The position numbers and the translations under genes are program-made. Shown piece by piece: positions 30,880-41,647 of a stretch of 64,000 nt of DNA. Location: contig CAZOWM010000002.1 of NCBI GenBank assembly GCA_964583615.1, forward strand, positions 8,050 to 72,049. Direction: 5' to 3'. Each line of letters starts with the position of its first letter. Position 1 is the stretch's first letter. The notes beneath the pieces are model-generated. The model was not told the DNA's origin. It worked only from the letters and a program-made list of their open reading frames with translations, and made no database searches. Source of the stretch: an uncultured Spirochaetota bacterium. GTDB taxonomy: Bacteria; Spirochaetota; B62-G9; DRHN01.

Positions 30880-32787
30880 ATGAAAAAAAACAGTGCCATT
30901 TCCAGACGAATCATGGGGAGCCTCATCGGAAGCATCCCGCGGGAAAAGGAACACGATTTCGAGCGCTACGGTGAAATGGCCAGACTGAAGTTCATCAACA
31001 TATCCCTTCTCACCGGATTGATCAGCTCCTGTGCGGTCCTCTGCTTCCAGATTCTGCGGCATGCCTTCCCGGGGGTATACTTCTCCGCCGCATCGGCCGT
31101 ACTCTTTTTTGTTTTCATCCTTTTGATGCGCCGCACCAGGAATATCAAACTGGGGAGCGTTTTTTTACTGAGCTTCATCGTTTTGCTGACAGGTGTCGGG
31201 CTCACGTCTTCGGAAATCTTTACTCCCGGGATGCTCTTTCTTTTTGCCTATCCTGTCATCGCGTTTTATCTGCAGGGGGCACGCCGGGGGGTGAGCTGGG
31301 TTGTCGTTTTTACGTGCGCGTATGGTGCAGCGCTCCTTCTCATCATGCTCGGCGCCGTCTCCGGACCCGTGCCGCATCCCATCCCGTTGATCGGGCTGTT
31401 GAATATCGTTCTCATTTCGATTTTTACGTTTCTGTCCGCAGACCGGCACCGCAGGATCGAGGAGCTCATGAGAAAACAGATCTTCTTCGACGCCCTCACC
31501 GGACTTCCGAACAGAAAAAAGCTCATAAAGGACATAGACGATTCCGTGTCTCCCGCGCTTTTCCTGGTCAATGTCGATGATTTCAAGGAGATCAACGCGA
31601 TCTTCGGCTACAGAATCGGCGACTCAGTGCTCATCTTTCTGGGGAAGCTCATCTCACACATCCTTCCGGCCTACGCAAGAGGGGTGTACAGGCTCGCAGG
31701 CGATGAGTTTGCAGTGCTCGTAGACACAGCCGACGAGTTCATTACCAGAGACATGCTGGAGACCACAGCGACTCTCCTGAGCCAGTATGTACAGAGGGAG
31801 AGGTACGGATACGCGAAGTATGAAATCATGCTCAGGGTGACCGCAGGTATTGCGCTTTCCCAAAACGCGGGCAAGCAAAACCTCTTCTCCTGCGCAGACA
31901 TTGCACTGAAAACGGCAAAACAGCTGCGAAAACCGTTTCTCTTCTACAGCGATGCGCAAAAGACTCGAAGCCGGTTCAAGGACAACCTGAAGTGGCTCAA
32001 GATTCTCTCCAATGCGATCGAGGGAGACCGAATCTTTCCCTTCTACCAGCCAATCGTGACCAATGCAACCGGAAAAATCGAGAAGTACGAGTGCCTGGCG
32101 AGGATCGCGGACAGCGAGGGAAAAATCATTCTCCCCAAAAACTTTCTCGAAGTGGCAAAGAAGTCACGGCTGTACCCGAAGATCACGCGCGCGATGCTGA
32201 AGAAGACCTTTGAGACCTTCAGGAATATCGACACGGAGTTCTCCCTGAACCTGTCGATCGAGGATTTCTTCGATCCCTATTTTCTGCAGTACATAAAGAT
32301 CGCGCTCAACGAGGCGCCGTCAATCAGGAAGAAGGTCACTTTTGAAATACTCGAGTCGGAGGGGATAAAAAATTACGGGGAGCTTTCCGCATTCATCGAG
32401 GAAATGAAACAGCTCGGCTGCAAGATTGCGCTCGATGATTTCGGCACGGGATATTCCAACTTCGAATACCTCATCAAGCTCAACCTCGATTACCTGAAGA
32501 TAGACGGGTCGCTTATCAGAAAGCTCGACAGAGACGACGGGACAAGGATCATCGTGGAAAACATCGTCAATTTCTCAAAAAAGCTCGGTATACAGACCGT
32601 TGCCGAGTACGTCCACTCGGACGAGATATTCAGTATCGTGAAGGCAATCGGGATCGACTACTCGCAGGGCGTCCTTCTCGGGGAGCCTCGGCCCGCCATG
32701 CTCGATATCTCAGACATCCCCGCAGGCACCGCACCCTCCTCCAAAAAGACAAAATCCTTTTCATCCTCTTCTACACGAAAAGAATAA
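30880..32787 (+). CDS. membrane-anchored GGDEF/EAL protein (c-di-GMP phosphodiesterase with degenerate cyclase domain)
   Basis: N-terminal ~6 TM segments. GGDEF domain reads RLAGDEFAV, a degenerate (AGDEF) active site. EAL domain has YECLARI, DDFGTGYS and EYVHS motifs. Confidence 0.8.
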   Translation: MKKNSAISRRIMGSLIGSIPREKEHDFERYGEMARLKFINISLLTGLISSCAVLCFQILRHAFPGVYFSAASAVLFFVFILLMRRTRNIKLGSVFLLSFIVLLTGVGLTSSEIFTPGMLFLFAYPVIAFYLQGARRGVSWVVVFTCAYGAALLLIMLGAVSGPVPHPIPLIGLLNIVLISIFTFLSADRHRRIEELMRKQIFFDALTGLPNRKKLIKDIDDSVSPALFLVNVDDFKEINAIFGYRIGDSVLIFLGKLISHILPAYARGVYRLAGDEFAVLVDTADEFITRDMLETTATLLSQYVQRERYGYAKYEIMLRVTAGIALSQNAGKQNLFSCADIALKTAKQLRKPFLFYSDAQKTRSRFKDNLKWLKILSNAIEGDRIFPFYQPIVTNATGKIEKYECLARIADSEGKIILPKNFLEVAKKSRLYPKITRAMLKKTFETFRNIDTEFSLNLSIEDFFDPYFLQYIKIALNEAPSIRKKVTFEILESEGIKNYGELSAFIEEMKQLGCKIALDDFGTGYSNFEYLIKLNLDYLKIDGSLIRKLDRDDGTRIIVENIVNFSKKLGIQTVAEYVHSDEIFSIVKAIGIDYSQGVLLGEPRPAMLDISDIPAGTAPSSKKTKSFSSSSTRKE

Positions 32788-32829: not shown

Positions 32830-33831
32830 ATGCAGCCATTACGAAACGCAATTATCGGGCTCGGCAGAATCGGAAGCACCCTCGAAGACGACCGACTGAG
32901 AGAAAAACCGTGTACGCACGCTGGCGCGGTCTCCCTGAGCCCTGACTGCATCCTTGTCGGCGGATGCGACATCGACAAACAAAAGAGAGAACGGTTCAAA
33001 AAGCGGTGGGGGTGCGAATCCGCATACCCCTCCATCGACGAGCTTCTCAAAAAAACCCGCCCCCACATCCTCCACATCGCAACACCGCCGGACACCCACC
33101 TCCACATGGTCGAAAAGGCTTTACAGCACGACGTTTCCGTGTGCATCTGTGAGAAACCGCTTGCAGCAACGCTCGCTGATGCGAAAAGGATCGCGGAAAT
33201 CCACGAGTTCGGAAAAATAAAGGTCCTCACAAACCACGAGCGCAGATACTCCGCAGACTACGTGCGGGCAGAGACTCTTGTCTCAAAAAAAACGCTCGGG
33301 CCGCTTCGCGCGGTCACGGCAAAGATCTCCATGGAGAACGAACAGTGCCTTTCCGCCATGCTGTGGAACGACGGAACACATCTCATCGACATCATCCGGT
33401 ATCTCTGCTGCCCCCGTCTGGAGCCGGAGAAACTGATCGGCACTCTTGAAAGGCAAAACGAAACTGCGTACATCTTCGCCCGCTCGGGAAACGTCCCGGT
33501 GATCATCGAAGCGGGAGGAGGGCGTGACCACTACGTGTTCGAGCTCGACATCGGGCTCGCCTCAGGGAGGATCAGAATCGGAAACGGGCTCTACGAGGAA
33601 TACAGAAGTGAAAAAAGCCTTTTCTACGAGGGGTTCAACTCTTTGAAACAGATGAAAATAAAGTGCAAAGACCCGAAGCAGTGGCCGTGCGGCCCCACAG
33701 GGTTTTTCTCGCTCATGCTCGAGGACGCGGTGTTGTGCGCCAGGCAAAACACCGAGCCTGTATCGAGCGCAAAGGACGGATTTCTGGCTCTCCGGTTTAT
33801 CGACAGAGTTTTTCATCTCCTGAAAAATTGA
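32830..33831 (+). CDS. Gfo/Idh/MocA family oxidoreductase
   Basis: N-terminal Rossmann IIGLGRIGS. Layout is typical of the family, and it has the family's EKP motif (ICEKPLA). Confidence 0.8.
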   Translation: MQPLRNAIIGLGRIGSTLEDDRLREKPCTHAGAVSLSPDCILVGGCDIDKQKRERFKKRWGCESAYPSIDELLKKTRPHILHIATPPDTHLHMVEKALQHDVSVCICEKPLAATLADAKRIAEIHEFGKIKVLTNHERRYSADYVRAETLVSKKTLGPLRAVTAKISMENEQCLSAMLWNDGTHLIDIIRYLCCPRLEPEKLIGTLERQNETAYIFARSGNVPVIIEAGGGRDHYVFELDIGLASGRIRIGNGLYEEYRSEKSLFYEGFNSLKQMKIKCKDPKQWPCGPTGFFSLMLEDAVLCARQNTEPVSSAKDGFLALRFIDRVFHLLKN

Positions 33832-33926
33832 AAAATAAAAAAAATGCGTTAGATTTATCAATTGCCTTTGAAACTTGCGCTCTTCATGTCTTACACTTTA
33901 TGAAGAGAGATAACGGAAGGGGATAT

Positions 33927-36900
33927 ATGCGCACTTTACCTGTAACGGTATTTCTGCTCTTTGGTCTCCTCGTAGGCATCAGCTCCTGCTTCATGGTCCG
34001 GGAAGATCTCTACGACGCACATAACGGCTCAGGCTCACAGGGAACCGGAGTTGACACTCCCGGAATCACTGTTGACATAGGAGACGGGCTCATCACAAAG
34101 GAAGATCTATCCCTTTCCGATACATTTACCGTTGTTCTGGACACCGAGCCCAGCGCAACAGTCACCATCGGCACAATACAGAGCCTTGATCCGGGCGAGG
34201 CGACGGTGTCGCCGTCGAGCCTCACCTTCACCACTGCAGACTGGGATATTCCCAAGGCCGTCACCGTCACTGGTGTGGACGACGCGATCACCGACGGAAT
34301 GCAGACCGCAGTCATAGACCTCGGCATAGCGTCAGGCGGCGACTACGAAGGTTTAGATCCGGGCGACGTGGTGGTGAGCAACCTCGACGACGAGGTTTCA
34401 TCCTCACCGGCAGTGATCGTTCTCACTGGAGACGGCCTTATCACCGCGGAGCACCCGACAGCGCCGCTTTCAGACACCTTTCAGGTCGTGCTGAACTCCC
34501 AGCCAACTGCAGACGTGTCCATCGGGACGATTTCGAGCACTGACATTTCTGAGGTCACCGTGAGCCCAGCGAGCATCACCTTCTCGACCGCAAACTGGGA
34601 CATACCGGTCACGGTCACCGTCACAGGGGTCGACGACCTCGAAAATGACGGGATGAAAACCGTGAACATCAACCTCGGAAGCACCACGAGCGCGGACGCG
34701 AACTGGGACGGTATGGTCCTTGCGCCTGTGTCGGTGCACAACCTTGACAACGACGCGCCCAAGGGAATTTCCGTCATTGCAGGGTCCCAGCTCATAGTGT
34801 CAGAAAGCGGTGCGGAGTGCTGGTTTGAAGTGGTGCTCGATTCAGCGCCTTCGGCGCAGGTGGACATCCCCGTCACCTTACCCGATTCGACGGAGGGAAC
34901 GATCACCTCTCCTGCAGCAGGAATACTGAGCTTCATTGCTGGAAACTGGGACACTGCCCAGACCGTGATCGTCACCGGCGTGGACGACTACGAGGCCGAC
35001 GGAAACACGAGCTTCAGTGTTGTGCTCGGCGCTGCAGTCTCAGCGGACACGGACTACAGCGGCATGGACCCCTCGGACGTGGCGTTTTTGAATATCGACA
35101 ATGAGACGCCCGGGATCACCGTGTACGCAGGCTCGTCAATGCTTGTGTCGGAAAACGGGAGCAGCACGTTTTTCGAGATCGTGCTCAACTCCGAGCCGTC
35201 TTCAACCGTCACGGTCAATGTTTCTTCCACCGACACGGGTGAGGGAACGGTGGCACCGACCGTGCTCAGCTTCATTGCTGGAAACTGGGACACTGCCCAG
35301 ACGCTTTCAGTGAGCGGTGTGGATGACCCCGCAGCGGATTGGAACAAGACATTTTTTATCGACATTACCACTTCCTCGGCGGATTCGGACTACAACGGGC
35401 TCACACAAAGCGTGGAATTCACGTGTGTTGACGACGATTTTCCAGGCATGACGGTGAGCGCGGGAACGAGGATGCTCGTGACGGAAACAGGCGGGGCAAG
35501 CGAGTTCGACGTGGTGCTCAACTCCGAGCCTTCCGATACAGTGACGGTAACCATCTCTTCGTCGAACACTCTTGAAGGAGACGTGACCGCAGGCGCCTCA
35601 CTCACGTTTATCGCAGCAAACTGGAGCGCGCCACAGACCGTCACCGTCACAGGGATCGACGACCACATTGCTGACGGAAACATCAATTTTACTGTCAGCT
35701 GTGTATCCTCTTCGCCTGCCGCTGATTACGACGGCCTGACGAAAAATATCGCTTTCACCAATATAGACGACAACACCCCCGGCGTGACCGTGAACGCAGG
35801 CTCCAGAATGATCGTCACGGAAAGCGGAATTTACTCAGAATTTATGGTAGTGCTCAACTCTGAGCCGCTTGACGATGTTGAGATATGCATTTCGAGCGAT
35901 ACGCCTGCAGAGGGGCTTGTGACCATACCCGCAGGAGGTGTTTTGACCTTTACGAGCACGGACTGGTTCATTGCTCAGTCTGTCACGGTCACCGGACAGG
36001 ACGATGCCGCGGTTGACGGAAACCAGAACTTTAGAATTAATTTCTCTGCAACATCTCTCCTTGATCCTGCATACGACGGGATTGTGATTCCTGACGTGGA
36101 CTTTTTGAACATTGACGACGACTCAACCGTCACAAAGACCATCACCGTTGTGGCAGGCTCCTCGACCCTCGTGTCAGAAAACGGGGGCGAGAGCAGTTTC
36201 CAGATCGTTTTGAGCTCCGCCCCCACAGACGACGTGACGATCCACGTGTCATCAAGCGACACGACAGAGGGGCAGGTCACAGACCCGCCCACAGGCGACG
36301 TGATATTCACTCCCATAGACTGGACGCCGAAGACGGTCACGGTCACAGGACAGGACGACGATCTTTATGATGGAAATGTGACCTTTCAGGTGAATCTCGT
36401 CAACGCCTCTTCACTCGACGGTGACTACAACGGCCTTTCACCGTCGCCGAACATCCTTGATTTCGAGTGCGTGGACGACGAGACGCCGGGCATCACGGTG
36501 AGCGCAGGCTCCTCGCTTCTCGTCTCTGAGAGCGACGCTGTTACAGGAGGTTCCTGCTCTTTCGAGGTGGTGCTGAACTCGGAGCCCACAGACGACGTGA
36601 CCATAAACGTTCACTCTGGCGACACGACCGAGGGCGACATTCTTTCAGGCACTACACTTACGTTTACCGATACAGACTGGAACATGCCCCAGACTGTCAC
36701 CGTGGCGGGCGTCGACGACTTTCTCGTGGACGGAAACCAGGGCTTCAGCATTGTGCTCGACTCTGACATTTTAACCGCTGATCCGTATTACAACGGGCTC
36801 GACCCGGACGACGTGTCATTCACCTGCGTAGACGACGACGCGCCCGGAATCACGGTCGACATCGGAGACGGCCTCTTCACCGCGGAGGACCCGGTGACTC

Positions 36901-38285
36901 CGCTCACAGACACCTTCAAGATAATGCTTAACTCTCAGCCAACTGACTCCGTTGTCATCGACATCACGAGCACGGACACGAACGAGGTCGACGTGAGTCC
37001 GGCGAGCATCACTTTCCTGACCACAAACTGGAGCACATCGCAGACCATCACCGTGACTGGTGTGGATGACTGGCTTGTTGACAGCGTGAACCCAAAAACC
37101 ATCGAGATCAAGCTCGGACCCGCATCGAGCGCGGACACGGATTACGACACTATGCTTATCGACTCCGTGTACGTGCACAACCTCGACGATGAAATACCAC
37201 CCGAAGTGCTCATACTCGGCCCGTCAAACGAATTCATCACCACAGATCTCGTGACCACGGAAAACGGCGGCACTTCGGAGTTCAAAGTGATTTTGAACTC
37301 CGCACCCACAGCTGACGTTGACATCACCATTTCGAGCAGCCTTCCGAGCGAGGGCACGCTCATTCCTGCGGATCCGCTCACCCTCACCTTCACCCCCTCG
37401 GACTGGAACGTGGCGCAGAGAATTACGATCGCAGGTGTGGACGACATGGTGCCGGACACAGAACAGTTTTACACCATCGACCTGGGCAGCACTGCAAGCG
37501 CAGACCCCTTCTGGGACATGATCCCTGCGGGAAGCGTCAGCGTGGTGAACAAGCCTCTTATCACCATGCTCGACTACGGCTGGTCGTCGGCCGTTGCAGC
37601 AGAACCGTTCACCAGCATCGGTCCTTCAGGAACCGGAACAGGCACTCCCCTGAGCTTCGTGGACACCGACCCGCTCGATCTGTACCCGCCCGAGGACGAG
37701 GGCTACCAGTTCGTGGATATCGGGTTTCCATTCTACTACATGGGGATGCGCCACACGCGCGTCGTGGTGTACACAAACGGGTACATGATCTTTTCCCCCT
37801 ACCCCAACACCATAAATGTGTATGTGAACGGTATTCTCTTCGCGGACAAGCTGGACCCGACCGACGGCGAATACGCAATCGGCTTCGAAAACGCGATTGC
37901 GCCCTGGTGGGACGACTTAAACGTAGGAGACGCGGGAAGCGGCGTGTACTTTGAAAGAAGCGGCCTGGTGGGAAACAGGGTGCTCACCATAGAGTGGGAA
38001 AACGCGCGGTATAATACGGGAAACGATATATTCAACTTTCAACTAAAGCTCTACGAGGCAGACTATTCCATAGAGTTCATCTACGGGACATCTGTAAACG
38101 GGTCGGGGAATGCCTCCGCGTGCATGGGAATACGAGACGACGTGGGAGGAGTTGACCGCACCATCGACGCCTTCAACGGCAACAGAACAACAGTGACGAG
38201 CAGCCCGTTCACCTCAGCGGACAGGGGCACGGGCGACTATCCCGTAGCCGACACAATAATACAGTTTCTGCCGATGATCTATTGA
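33927..38285 (+). CDS. giant surface lipoprotein with ~10 tandem Calx-beta-like repeats and C-terminal NIDO-like domain
   Basis: Start is ATG 33927, with GGAAGGGGA 4 nt upstream. Signal peptide with a lipobox-like LVGISSC. About ten 110-115-aa repeats of pattern PGITV.AGS.LVSE.G...F.VVLNSEP.D.V.I.VSS.DT.EG.V....LTFT..NW...QTVTVTG.DD...DGN..F.V.L....SAD.DY.GL. The C-terminal ~250 aa carry YMIFSPYP...IAPWWDDLNVGDAGSGVYFE, reminiscent of the NIDO domain motif (APFWADvD...G.VYY). Confidence 0.7.
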   Translation: MRTLPVTVFLLFGLLVGISSCFMVREDLYDAHNGSGSQGTGVDTPGITVDIGDGLITKEDLSLSDTFTVVLDTEPSATVTIGTIQSLDPGEATVSPSSLTFTTADWDIPKAVTVTGVDDAITDGMQTAVIDLGIASGGDYEGLDPGDVVVSNLDDEVSSSPAVIVLTGDGLITAEHPTAPLSDTFQVVLNSQPTADVSIGTISSTDISEVTVSPASITFSTANWDIPVTVTVTGVDDLENDGMKTVNINLGSTTSADANWDGMVLAPVSVHNLDNDAPKGISVIAGSQLIVSESGAECWFEVVLDSAPSAQVDIPVTLPDSTEGTITSPAAGILSFIAGNWDTAQTVIVTGVDDYEADGNTSFSVVLGAAVSADTDYSGMDPSDVAFLNIDNETPGITVYAGSSMLVSENGSSTFFEIVLNSEPSSTVTVNVSSTDTGEGTVAPTVLSFIAGNWDTAQTLSVSGVDDPAADWNKTFFIDITTSSADSDYNGLTQSVEFTCVDDDFPGMTVSAGTRMLVTETGGASEFDVVLNSEPSDTVTVTISSSNTLEGDVTAGASLTFIAANWSAPQTVTVTGIDDHIADGNINFTVSCVSSSPAADYDGLTKNIAFTNIDDNTPGVTVNAGSRMIVTESGIYSEFMVVLNSEPLDDVEICISSDTPAEGLVTIPAGGVLTFTSTDWFIAQSVTVTGQDDAAVDGNQNFRINFSATSLLDPAYDGIVIPDVDFLNIDDDSTVTKTITVVAGSSTLVSENGGESSFQIVLSSAPTDDVTIHVSSSDTTEGQVTDPPTGDVIFTPIDWTPKTVTVTGQDDDLYDGNVTFQVNLVNASSLDGDYNGLSPSPNILDFECVDDETPGITVSAGSSLLVSESDAVTGGSCSFEVVLNSEPTDDVTINVHSGDTTEGDILSGTTLTFTDTDWNMPQTVTVAGVDDFLVDGNQGFSIVLDSDILTADPYYNGLDPDDVSFTCVDDDAPGITVDIGDGLFTAEDPVTPLTDTFKIMLNSQPTDSVVIDITSTDTNEVDVSPASITFLTTNWSTSQTITVTGVDDWLVDSVNPKTIEIKLGPASSADTDYDTMLIDSVYVHNLDDEIPPEVLILGPSNEFITTDLVTTENGGTSEFKVILNSAPTADVDITISSSLPSEGTLIPADPLTLTFTPSDWNVAQRITIAGVDDMVPDTEQFYTIDLGSTASADPFWDMIPAGSVSVVNKPLITMLDYGWSSAVAAEPFTSIGPSGTGTGTPLSFVDTDPLDLYPPEDEGYQFVDIGFPFYYMGMRHTRVVVYTNGYMIFSPYPNTINVYVNGILFADKLDPTDGEYAIGFENAIAPWWDDLNVGDAGSGVYFERSGLVGNRVLTIEWENARYNTGNDIFNFQLKLYEADYSIEFIYGTSVNGSGNASACMGIRDDVGGVDRTIDAFNGNRTTVTSSPFTSADRGTGDYPVADTIIQFLPMIY
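34060..37500 (+). repeat. intragenic tandem coding repeats (~340 bp unit), some copies near-identical at DNA level
   Basis: An exact 34-nt duplicate gcttcattgctggaaactgggacactgcccagac occurs at 34929-34962 and 35269-35302. Repeat units 1 and 9 and units 2 and 9 are highly similar at the protein level. Confidence 0.7.
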
Positions 38286-38430
38286 TACACAAAAACCGTT
38301 CACGAGCTTCTTATTTTCTCTCTCCCCTTTCCCGGTGTGAAAAAACAACGGGGAAATATCCCTGTTGCATTTAATTCAGAAATATTAAGGAATGATCATT
38401 CCTGACCGCGAAGCAAACTGTACAGCAAAG

Positions 38431-39319: not shown

Positions 39320-39793
39320 ATGAGAAAAATGCCCTCACATCCCCTTTTCCAAGAAGGCATTCAGTTCGAGTGCACACGGTGCGGGAAATGCTGTACCGGG
39401 TATCCGGGATACGTCTACCTATCAGAACCCGACATCCTCGGAATGGCGCACTATCTCGGAATCAGCACGAAAGAATTCGTGAAACGGTACACACGGCTCG
39501 TCTTCATGTTCCACGAACAGAGGCTCTCTCTTGTTGAGAAGAATCAATATGACTGTGTGTTCTGGGACACGCTCTGCACGATCTATCCGGCACGCCCTCA
39601 CCAGTGCAGGACCTACCCCTTCTGGAAACGGCACCTCGTTTCAAAACGGGAGTGGGAGAAAACAGCCGCATTCTGTCCCGGCATCAACAGGGGAAGGGTC
39701 TACTCACAGAAAGAAATCGAGGAATTGATACGCAGTACTCCCAACTACGATATCCGACGTTTTTCCCCGCACCTGAAAAGAGAAATCCTATAA
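39320..39793 (+). CDS. YkgJ/UPF0153 family zinc/iron-chelating Cys-cluster protein
   Basis: FECTRCGKCCTGYPGYVYL plus downstream Cys residues (CVFWDTLCTIYPARPHQCRTYPFW), as in the YkgJ family. Confidence 0.7.
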   Translation: MRKMPSHPLFQEGIQFECTRCGKCCTGYPGYVYLSEPDILGMAHYLGISTKEFVKRYTRLVFMFHEQRLSLVEKNQYDCVFWDTLCTIYPARPHQCRTYPFWKRHLVSKREWEKTAAFCPGINRGRVYSQKEIEELIRSTPNYDIRRFSPHLKREIL

Positions 39794-39823
39794 AGGGGTG
39801 AAGCGCCCTTCAGCGCTTCCCCT

Positions 39824-41005
39824 TCATATGATTTCAAGCTTTTTTCCCACCTCTTTAAACACCTCGAGCGCATAGTCGAGCTGCTCGTCCGTATGGGTAG
39901 CAGTGTAGCTCGTCCGTATGAGCGAGCTTCCCGCAGGAACAGCGGGGGGAATCACAGGGTTTACGAACAGGCCCTTTTCCGTGACTTCACGCCACACCGT
40001 CAGGCACTGATCCATCTCTCCGATGATGAGGGGAATGATCGGTGTCTGTGAAGGTCCCACGTTGTACCCCATCTCTCTGAATGCGGTCCTCATCCGATCT
40101 GCGATCCGCAGGAGACGAGTTCTCCGCTCGGGCTCATTCGTGACGATGTCGATTGCCACGTTCACTGCTCCGAGGACGGCAGGCGGGAGGCTTGCGGTAA
40201 ATATAAGCGCCCGTGAGTGGTGCTTGAGGTAATTGATCACCTGATGGCCGGAAACCGCAAATCCTCCGATTGTTGCGAAGGACTTGCTGAAGGTGGCCAT
40301 CTGAATATCGACTTCGTCCTCGACGCCGAAATGTTCCGCTGCTCCACGTCCGTTTTTGCCGAGCACGCCGATTGCGTGCGCTTCGTCCACCATTACCCGT
40401 GCCCCGTAGCGGCGCGCAAGGTCCACGATCCCGGGCAGGTTTGCGATATCCCCTTCCATGCTGAACACGCCGTCAACAACGATGAGCTTCCCCGCATTCC
40501 GGTCGGACAGTTCCAGCACCCTCTTCAGATCATCCATGTCGTTGTGCTTGAACTTCACCACCTTCCCGAAGGAAAGACGAACTCCGTCGATGATACTCGC
40601 ATGGTCCGCCCTGTCGACGTAGACGATATCTTCTTTCCCGATAATGGTGGACAAAACCCCCTGATTTGTGAGCATACCGGTTGAGAAAAGCAGTGCGCTC
40701 TCCCTGTGCATGAAACGGGCGATCTTTTCCTCGAGCTCCTCGTGGAGATCGAGCGTGCCGTTTAAAAACCGGGAGCCTGCACAGCCGGTTCCATGCCGGT
40801 GCAACTCCTGTATCGCACCTTCGATCATCCGCTGATCGAAGGTGAGTCCCAGATAGGAGTTGGAACCGAGCATGATCATCTTTTTCCCGTCTATGTAGAC
40901 TTCCGTGTCGTTCCCCGTTTCAATGGCTCTGAAGTAGGGGTAAAGTCCTTTGGCTCTGTACTCTTCGACAAGAGAGTAGTTGTACGCTTTTTGAAATATG
41001 TCCAT
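39824..41005 (-). CDS. alpha-oxoamine synthase family PLP enzyme (8-amino-7-oxononanoate synthase / 2-amino-3-ketobutyrate CoA ligase / serine palmitoyltransferase-like)
   Basis: 393 aa. PLP-lysine motif ATFSKSFATIGG and a GSNSYLGL N-terminal motif. No bioA/bioD or tdh nearby. Confidence 0.8.
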   Translation of the reverse strand: MDIFQKAYNYSLVEEYRAKGLYPYFRAIETGNDTEVYIDGKKMIMLGSNSYLGLTFDQRMIEGAIQELHRHGTGCAGSRFLNGTLDLHEELEEKIARFMHRESALLFSTGMLTNQGVLSTIIGKEDIVYVDRADHASIIDGVRLSFGKVVKFKHNDMDDLKRVLELSDRNAGKLIVVDGVFSMEGDIANLPGIVDLARRYGARVMVDEAHAIGVLGKNGRGAAEHFGVEDEVDIQMATFSKSFATIGGFAVSGHQVINYLKHHSRALIFTASLPPAVLGAVNVAIDIVTNEPERRTRLLRIADRMRTAFREMGYNVGPSQTPIIPLIIGEMDQCLTVWREVTEKGLFVNPVIPPAVPAGSSLIRTSYTATHTDEQLDYALEVFKEVGKKLEII

Positions 41006-41161
41006 GAAGTCTCTCCTGAGTGCTTAAATATATCATATATATAAAAAAAGTAAAACTTCAAAGATCCAGTCGACGGAAAAATTTCAGAAAAGGAGATGAA
41101 TTTTGCCGATGATAGTACTATACTAAGAGTAGAAAACCGACACGGATGCGAAGGAGCGTGT

Positions 41162-41647
41162 ATGAAAAGGGTACTGATATTTATCACCGCACTTGTGCTT
41201 GTAATCGTCGCGGGCATCACTTACGGGCAGAGGGTTGTTCGTCTCGGCGACCTCCCCACGAGTGATTCCAGCATCAATATCTATCAGGTTTTTGGGTTTC
41301 AGGAATCCTACGAAGGGTATAAAATCACCTATATCGATAACCAAAATGAACCTCAGTACCTCTTTCTTCCAGCGGAACTCCTCAACAAGGTAAGAATCTA
41401 CACCCCGCAGAACAACACGTACAGCCAGAATTTCCTCATCATCTGGAAAAAGGAAAGCAGCATCACCAAGGTGGAATGGTACAAACCCCATGCGGTCGAC
41501 TACAAACTTCCTTACTATTCCCTCGATCCGTTCCAGGAAAAGGACAAAGAGATCTTTAGAAAGATCGTCTCAAACGGAGAGATCGTGCTCGGTACAGAGC
41601 TCGGAGGAACTGCACCGACCATTCAGGCTCCCGGAGGAGGCCAGTAG
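41162..41647 (+). CDS. secreted hypothetical protein
   Basis: MKRVLIFITALVLVIVAGITYGQ signal peptide, then a Tyr/Asn-rich domain with no match I recognise. Confidence 0.45.
   Translation: MKRVLIFITALVLVIVAGITYGQRVVRLGDLPTSDSSINIYQVFGFQESYEGYKITYIDNQNEPQYLFLPAELLNKVRIYTPQNNTYSQNFLIIWKKESSITKVEWYKPHAVDYKLPYYSLDPFQEKDKEIFRKIVSNGEIVLGTELGGTAPTIQAPGGGQ

Follow-up and report, generated by a model that had tools for sequence, protein, structure and literature searches.

Calx-beta domains are found in the Na+/Ca2+ exchanger NCX1, as CBD1 and CBD2, and in many large bacterial surface proteins. In NCX1 the Ca2+ sites are built from a glutamate on strand A, a DD..E loop and a C-terminal DDD. Spirochaetes have familiar lipoprotein adhesins that are long and rich in repeats. 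In Leptospira, the lipoproteins LigA and LigB carry 12-13 tandem immunoglobulin-like (Ig-like) Big_2 (PF02368) repeats, with an additional C-terminal non-repeat domain in LigB, and work at the surface as adhesins for host matrix, also binding Ca2+. RemA of Flavobacterium johnsoniae, which has a lectin domain, and its homologue RemZ (Fjoh_0803) are exported and anchored through a C-terminal type IX secretion system (T9SS) domain (PMC10994853 and its ref. 28). Here we describe a gene at 33927-38285 of a 64,000-nucleotide stretch of DNA (the window) from an uncultured Spirochaetota bacterium (contig CAZOWM010000002.1), the product of which combines a lipobox, ten Calx-beta-type repeats and a C-terminal domain related to the NIDO domain of animal nidogens. 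On balance these features probably define a lipid-anchored, stalk-and-head protein of the cell envelope, broadly speaking an adhesin or matrix-binding protein; its surface exposure and adhesive function, like its rod shape and Ca2+ binding, are parts of this picture that we infer.

Repeat array and lipoprotein signal

The gene is intact, being a single uninterrupted open reading frame (ORF) on the + strand, with its stop at 38285. An earlier note on this DNA, made by a model from the sequence, had placed here a protein of about 1450 amino acids (aa) and the largest gene of the window; the protein has 1452 aa, and its ORF is indeed the largest present. Iterated self-search delimits exactly ten tandem repeats between aa 45 and 1209, each scoring 104-163 bits, which matches the roughly ten Calx-beta-like repeats of that note. 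The repeats are 111-125 aa long, share 29-56% pairwise identity and fall into two subtypes, repeats 1, 2 and 9 (subtype A) versus repeats 3-8, with repeat 10 the most divergent.

The only family that Pfam assigns significantly to the whole protein is Calx-beta (PF03160), which matches four stretches at 67.5 bits (E = 1.4e-18), compared with a cut-off of 27 bits. Scanned singly, repeats 3-8 match the Calx-beta model over nearly its full length, with E between 3.5e-6 and 0.07, repeats 3-6 and 8 giving 13.6-20.6 bits, below the cut-off. Repeats 1, 2, 9 and 10 scanned in the same way have no Pfam match, and are clear homologs of the remaining repeats by alignment. Neither for the whole protein nor for the single repeats does a Big, PKD, cadherin or fn3 model of Pfam compete, and the assignment to Big or PKD that the earlier note had named as evidence against its proposal thus did not arise. 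All ten repeats can be taken as Calx-beta homologs, and their length is compatible with a beta-sandwich of about 100-120 residues.

The repeats carry the previously quoted core, LTFT..NW..PQTVTVTGVDD...DGN..F. In the alignment of all ten (A2) the invariant columns are E15, F22, L26, P30, V34, E45, F56, W61, G71, D73, D74 and D78, and D93 and D109 are nearly invariant. The best match of the repeat profile among PDB sequences is NCX1 CBD12, a weak one (E = 0.068), in which G-x-DD-x-x-x-D-G-N-x-x-F is set against IIDDDIFEEDKNF and VIDDEEYEKNKTF of CBD1 and CBD2. The conserved acidic positions of the repeats presumably correspond to the Ca2+ ligands of NCX1. The mature protein, of about 150 kDa, is itself strongly acidic, with an isoelectric point (pI) of 4.05, 162 aspartates (11%) and only 29 lysines and arginines together (2%). 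Because the proteins of neighbouring genes have ordinary pI values, the acidity is a property of this lipoprotein; a halophile proteome as its source was rejected on the same grounds. Such acidity would fit with the binding of divalent cations.

At the other end of the array from the NIDO-like domain, the N-terminus MRTLPVTVFLLFGLLVGISSC satisfies a PROSITE PS51257-style lipobox rule at Cys21, namely a positive n-region, a hydrophobic h-region and the pattern [LIVMFWSTAG]2-[LIVMFYSTAGCQ]-[AGS]-C within the first 35 residues. The signal is canonical, with MRTLPVTVFLLFGLLVGISS ahead of C21 and a mean Kyte-Doolittle hydropathy of 2.6 in its h-region. The cysteine is kept in the ortholog P0007 and in P0026, P0030, P0035, P0063, P0093 and P0106, and N-terminally complete proteins of the same architecture begin with a lipobox. 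The lipobox is present and lipidation is predicted, so that the description of the protein as a lipoprotein, also made in the earlier note, stands.

The C-terminal NIDO-like domain

The last 243 aa hold the motifs IAPWWDDLN...GSGVYFE and NGYMIFS that had first suggested a NIDO-like domain, within a series comprising YTNGY, APWWDDL, GVYFE, TIEWENA, FQLKLYE and IEFIYG. The link to Pfam NIDO (PF06119; gathering score 25 bits, profile length 186) runs through relatives of the domain. In the family alignment A1, 19 of 44 members match Pfam NIDO at E <= 0.01 (best E = 2.8e-10), and the remaining 25 go undetected by it. Six of ten members scanned singly exceed the 25-bit score, at 26.8-40.9 bits, and jointly cover positions 1-160 of the profile; the full-length family member P0055 reaches 59 bits over positions 2-131 of 186, and the domain of the ortholog P0007 scores 19.2 bits (E = 0.0013). 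We also built an alignment of true nidogens (A3), gathered with a segment of human nidogen-1, the hits of which bear the names nidogen-1 or nidogen-2 and contain PF06119. When A1 is aligned with A3 by hhalign, the probability is 73% and E = 3e-5 over 84 columns, which include TNG, AP.W.DL, G.VYY, T.EW..V and FQ..L. Conversely, a search with the bacterial profile recovers nidogen-1 (20 bits) and a NIDO protein of fish (39.4 bits). Because members of A1 match PF06119, hhalign joins them to the nidogens and the reverse profile search agrees, the domain can be placed in the NIDO superfamily as a divergent bacterial member, related by remote homology. The proposed NIDO-like C-terminus thus holds at the level of profile and transitive links, but not as a Pfam NIDO match of this protein itself.

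The same note regarded NIDO domains as rare in bacteria, which is contradicted by the size of the family. With phmmer, run exhaustively against 1.84 billion cluster representatives (clusters at 50% identity), 3354 of them are retrieved at E <= 1e-3, of which 551 reach E <= 1e-10. Neither the protein nor any of the 44 members of A1 has a match in NCBIfam. Since Pfam finds 19 of 44 members, NCBIfam has no model and the family comprises at least 3354 clusters, most of it would appear to be annotated at present as hypothetical proteins. Family members sit in extracellular multi-domain proteins together with Por_Secre_tail, TIG, Cadherin, Ig_7 or fn3 domains, and many of these proteins hold 2-7 copies of the NIDO-like domain. 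In P0006, P0008, P0023, P0076 and P0121, which are 1000-3800 aa long, there are 4-7 tandem copies, with TIG, cadherin, DUF1573 and HYDIN-type Ig domains scattered among them.

Structure prediction had been advised for this domain in the earlier note. A single-sequence AlphaFold2 (AF2) model was unusable, with a predicted local distance difference test (pLDDT) of 31.7, and an alignment-based model was used instead. With A1 as input, AF2 gives a confident all-beta model (pLDDT 89.7, predicted template modelling score 0.90), but a Foldseek search of the PDB with this model returned nothing below E = 0.13, leaving no similar solved structure to place beside it. We know of no experimental structure of a NIDO domain from animals or bacteria. 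The sole match of the family profile among PDB sequences is 8gl6 chain D, aa 33-207 (E = 7e-35). This chain, labelled "RemA" in the PDB sequence file, is RemZ, and in the cryo-electron microscopy structure only its C-terminal T9SS domain is resolved, not the N-terminal NIDO-like domain (PMC10994853). There is thus no experimental structure of the module in that entry, in agreement with the absence of a Foldseek match.

In a library of viral models, Foldseek finds the fold again in uncharacterised phage proteins, with a best E of 2.9e-10 and a template modelling (TM) score of 0.63. The BFVD entries concerned, A0A6J5P7T5, A0A6J5KVM1, F4YCL1, C7F4D3 and A0A879R3E6, belong to uncultured tailed phages and a Synechococcus phage; these proteins may be receptor-binding or tail-fibre modules.

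Where does the domain stand relative to the anchor? Among the signal-bearing proteins of the top 150 family matches, those with a lipobox have the NIDO-like domain at the C-terminal end in ten cases and at the N-terminal end in one, and those without a lipobox have it at the C-terminal end in four and the N-terminal end in 58 (Fisher p = 1.7e-8, for cases that are not phylogenetically independent). Several of the N-terminal type have either a T9SS sorting domain at the C-terminus or Ig domains associated with CHU_C. The domain thus lies opposite the lipid anchor and the T9SS anchor alike, which would place it at the membrane-distal end in both systems, the position expected of a binding head. 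For the present protein, this placement suggests a lipid-anchored and probably Ca2+-stiffened stalk that presents such a head.

The architecture itself is conserved. Among the 150 best representatives, 19 have 1-10 such repeats together with a terminal NIDO-like domain, and in the same-architecture proteins compared the number of repeats runs from 4 to 10. P0007, a protein of 1441 aa from a related metagenomic genome, is 53% identical end to end and colinear, with ten repeats that correspond one to one and an aligned lipobox cysteine.

Gene and genomic context

The window, of 50-58% G+C, is chromosomal DNA of an ordinary kind, in which no Rfam family or tRNA was found. Upstream of the gene lie murB and genes for a TPR protein, a PHP-domain protein, a GGDEF-EAL protein and a GFO_IDH_MocA oxidoreductase; downstream are those for a GNAT acetyltransferase, a CxxCxxCC protein and an aminotransferase, followed by aroA. 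AroA is closest to that of uncultured Spirochaetota genomes, the top five being 64%, 58%, 57%, 54% and 56% identical. The locus of P0007 (L026) is syntenic, in the order murB-TPR-PHP-[gene]-GNAT-CxxCxxCC-...-aminotransferase, and this synteny, with the end-to-end colinearity of the two proteins, marks the gene and P0007 as orthologs under selection. A GTDB species-genome scan with the C-terminal domain gave no close relative, an exact-sequence look-up of the full protein gave no record, and no match was obtained when 25 aroA-anchored loci from related genomes were searched with the protein by tblastn.

The two loci differ in several details. In the compared part of L026 (6765-8001) the PHP-domain gene directly adjoins the large lipoprotein gene, and the GGDEF-EAL gene (30880-32787) and the GFO_IDH_MocA oxidoreductase gene (32830-33831) are additional genes of the window. 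An MFS transporter gene lies between the CxxCxxCC gene and the aminotransferase gene in L026 and is absent from the window (39793-39824). Between the aminotransferase gene and aroA, the window has a 183-aa ORF (41096-41647, + strand) with no Pfam family, and L026 has at that position a 161-aa gene that is also without a family. A link of the lipoprotein to the upstream GGDEF-EAL gene, as an adhesin controlled by cyclic di-GMP, was considered and is unsupported, the GGDEF-EAL gene being missing from L026.

Opened mechanically, the ORF would begin at a GTG at 33663, overlapping the preceding oxidoreductase gene. We prefer the ATG at 33927 because it has the ribosome-binding site GGAAGGGG at a spacing of 4 nucleotides (nt), the alternative ATG at 33900 has none, and the start of P0007 is level with 33927. 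The hexamers upstream and the hairpin downstream, both of them pattern matches only, would fit with a separate transcription unit. No tandem repeat was detected at the DNA level across the gene; the repeat array is thus ancient rather than an assembly artefact. The features are collected in Table 1.

Table 1. Features of the lipoprotein gene, in window coordinates
Feature	Residues	Coordinates	Strand	Basis
Promoter-like hexamer pair TTGAAA-18-TACACT in A-rich intergenic region		33868..33897	+	Consensus scan, pattern match only
Ribosome-binding site, 4 nt ahead of ATG 33927		33915..33922	+	Read from sequence
Complete coding sequence, 1452 aa + stop	1-1452	33927..38285	+	ORF translation; colinear ortholog P0007
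Predicted lipoprotein signal peptide, lipobox I-S-S-C, Cys21		33927..33989	+	PS51257-style rule
Short Gly/Ser-rich tether, lipidated Cys to repeat 1	22-44	33990..34058	+	Translation, repeat boundaries
Repeat 1, subtype A (GDGLIT...)	45-160	34059..34406	+	Self-search; no Pfam match alone; 38-54% identity to other repeats
Repeat 2, subtype A	161-278	34407..34760	+	Self-search; no Pfam match alone
Repeat 3	279-394	34761..35108	+	Self-search; Pfam Calx-beta E = 4.6e-4
Repeat 4	395-505	35109..35441	+	Self-search; Pfam Calx-beta E = 5.3e-4
Repeat 5	506-617	35442..35777	+	Self-search; Pfam Calx-beta E = 6.2e-4
Repeat 6	618-736	35778..36134	+	Self-search; Pfam Calx-beta E = 0.071
Repeat 7	737-853	36135..36485	+	Self-search; Pfam Calx-beta E = 3.5e-6, 27.5 bits
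Repeat 8	854-972	36486..36842	+	Self-search; Pfam Calx-beta E = 7.4e-3
Repeat 9, subtype A as repeats 1 and 2	973-1097	36843..37217	+	Self-search; no Pfam match alone
Repeat 10, most divergent, without terminal DDD	1098-1209	37218..37553	+	Self-search; no Pfam match alone
C-terminal NIDO-like domain, 243 aa, predicted all-beta	1210-1452	37554..38282	+	AF2 model, family links to NIDO
Hairpin of 9 bp, 60 nt past stop, weak T tail; possible terminator		38346..38367	+	Pattern match only

Proposed role and comparison with known systems

How might such a protein be organised at the cell envelope? After Sec export, Cys21 would be lipidated and so hold the N-terminus at a membrane, most likely the outer one. 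The ten Calx-beta-type beta-sandwich repeats would then extend as a rod, about 40 nm long if each Ig-like domain contributes about 4 nm. The invariant acids, which comprise the E of V-S-E-x-G, the G-x-D-D-x-x-x-D loop and the D-D-D that closes a repeat, would lie at the Ca2+-binding positions of the NCX Calx-beta domains and would probably chelate Ca2+ at the domain junctions, stiffening the rod. The NIDO-like domain, at the membrane-distal tip, would serve as the binding head, its probable ligand being a polymer or some other component of a cell surface or matrix. A role as a surface adhesin or matrix-binding protein can plausibly be inferred from this organisation.

Several observations weigh against this explanation. 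A lipobox in a spirochaete does not tell whether the protein is exposed at the surface. Repeat 7 is the only single repeat that scores above the Calx-beta cut-off by itself, and the correspondence of Ca2+ sites stands on a weak alignment with NCX1, together with the sites described for NCX1. Pfam NIDO is not matched by the whole protein at E <= 1 or by the isolated 243-aa domain at E <= 10; a literature search for bacterial NIDO domains found no relevant paper, and to our knowledge NIDO has no established function in any organism. The relatives are all metagenomic, unnamed or listed as "hypothetical protein", and are known from sequence alone, and seven of the ten lipobox proteins with a C-terminal NIDO-like domain belong to one architecture family.

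Three other explanations were considered. The protein could remain beneath the surface as a periplasmic lipoprotein, its rod acting as a spacer or scaffold from the outer membrane to the peptidoglycan or the periplasmic flagella and its head binding an envelope component. Many spirochaete lipoproteins are subsurface, and the gene lies near murB and further housekeeping genes in two genomes, but a rod of about 40 nm would be longer than the typical width of the periplasm, the neighbours are functionally unrelated and differ between the two loci, and relatives have a surface location; we therefore consider a periplasmic spacer unlikely. Similarly low is the probability that we attach to a structural surface coat, in which acidic, Ca2+-binding repeats and the terminal domain would self-associate into a lattice or sheath in the manner of a surface layer (S-layer). 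Extreme acidity and repetitiveness are features of Ca2+-dependent S-layer proteins, and the repeat profile does match one such protein, 9fsa_A, very weakly (E = 0.5). This match is not significant, however, the variation in repeat number among the same-architecture proteins is typical of adhesin stalks, and this head domain is also present in RemZ, homologous to the mobile gliding adhesin RemA.

It is more improbable still that the C-terminal domain is a tethered enzyme, for instance a glycan-degrading hydrolase or lyase on a stalk. The polar residues D48, N75, D121, R142, E168 and Y177 are conserved in A1, W119 is invariant, and the top Foldseek rows from the PDB include GH131, GH36, GH97 and an alginate lyase, all of which could be taken to favour catalysis. 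The glycosidase and lyase rows, together with ryanodine receptor (RyR) rows, are nevertheless noise (E >= 0.13, probability <= 0.14, TM <= 0.22), no enzyme family of Pfam or NCBIfam is matched, and tandem arrays of 3-7 copies per protein are typical of binding modules rather than of catalytic domains.

Both domain families were already known, and the protein is an unannotated and unstudied addition to them. The lipoprotein is a clean and conserved instance of a stalk tipped by a NIDO-related domain, with a syntenic ortholog, 19 same-architecture proteins and a confident model. The wider interest lies in how large, and how poorly annotated, the bacterial NIDO-like family is. Thousands of proteins would be better annotated with a dedicated bacterial-branch profile and a binding study of a head domain, which could also provide a first functional handle on animal NIDO. 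It is possible, if somewhat short of probable, that the module stands for a branch of NIDO in bacteria and phages that is very large and mostly missed by annotation, and that it serves universally as a binding domain at the membrane-distal tip whatever the anchor. If so, the bacterial proteins would provide a tractable route to NIDO biochemistry in nidogen, MUC4, SNED1 and alpha-tectorin, and a prokaryotic origin would be indicated for this extracellular-matrix module.

Compared with the Calx-beta domains of NCX1, the lipoprotein repeats have a conserved acidic DD...D/E loop and terminal DDD that may correspond to the Ca2+ sites there; they are very divergent, four having no match when scanned alone, and they belong to a predicted extracellular lipoprotein stalk rather than to a cytosolic regulatory loop. 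The Leptospira proteins LigA and LigB offer an analogy only. They too combine a spirochaete lipobox, a long array of Ig-like beta-sandwiches and a distinct C-terminal domain, but no Big family is found in the lipoprotein, either whole or by single repeats, and the C-terminal domains are unrelated. The organism of the lipoprotein gives no sign of host association.

With the animal NIDO domains of nidogen-1/2, MUC4, SNED1 and alpha-tectorin, the bacterial domain shares an extracellular setting and the motif order TNG...AP(F/W)W.D(L/V)D...G.VYY...T(I/V)(E)W..V...FQ..L...F.Y. The nidogens differ in having an insert of about 30 residues between VYYRE and VVTWE, which the bacterial domain lacks, and the subfamily of the lipoprotein has extra N- and C-terminal strands (query 1-243, compared with a core of about 45-200). 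In contrast to RemA and RemZ, the lipoprotein has a lipobox and the reverse polarity, ending with the NIDO-like domain, and Pfam finds in it no Por_Secre_tail or CHU_C-related match and hence no T9SS sorting domain. RemZ nevertheless carries the same NIDO-like module, at aa 33-207, and again opposite the anchor of a large multi-domain surface protein.

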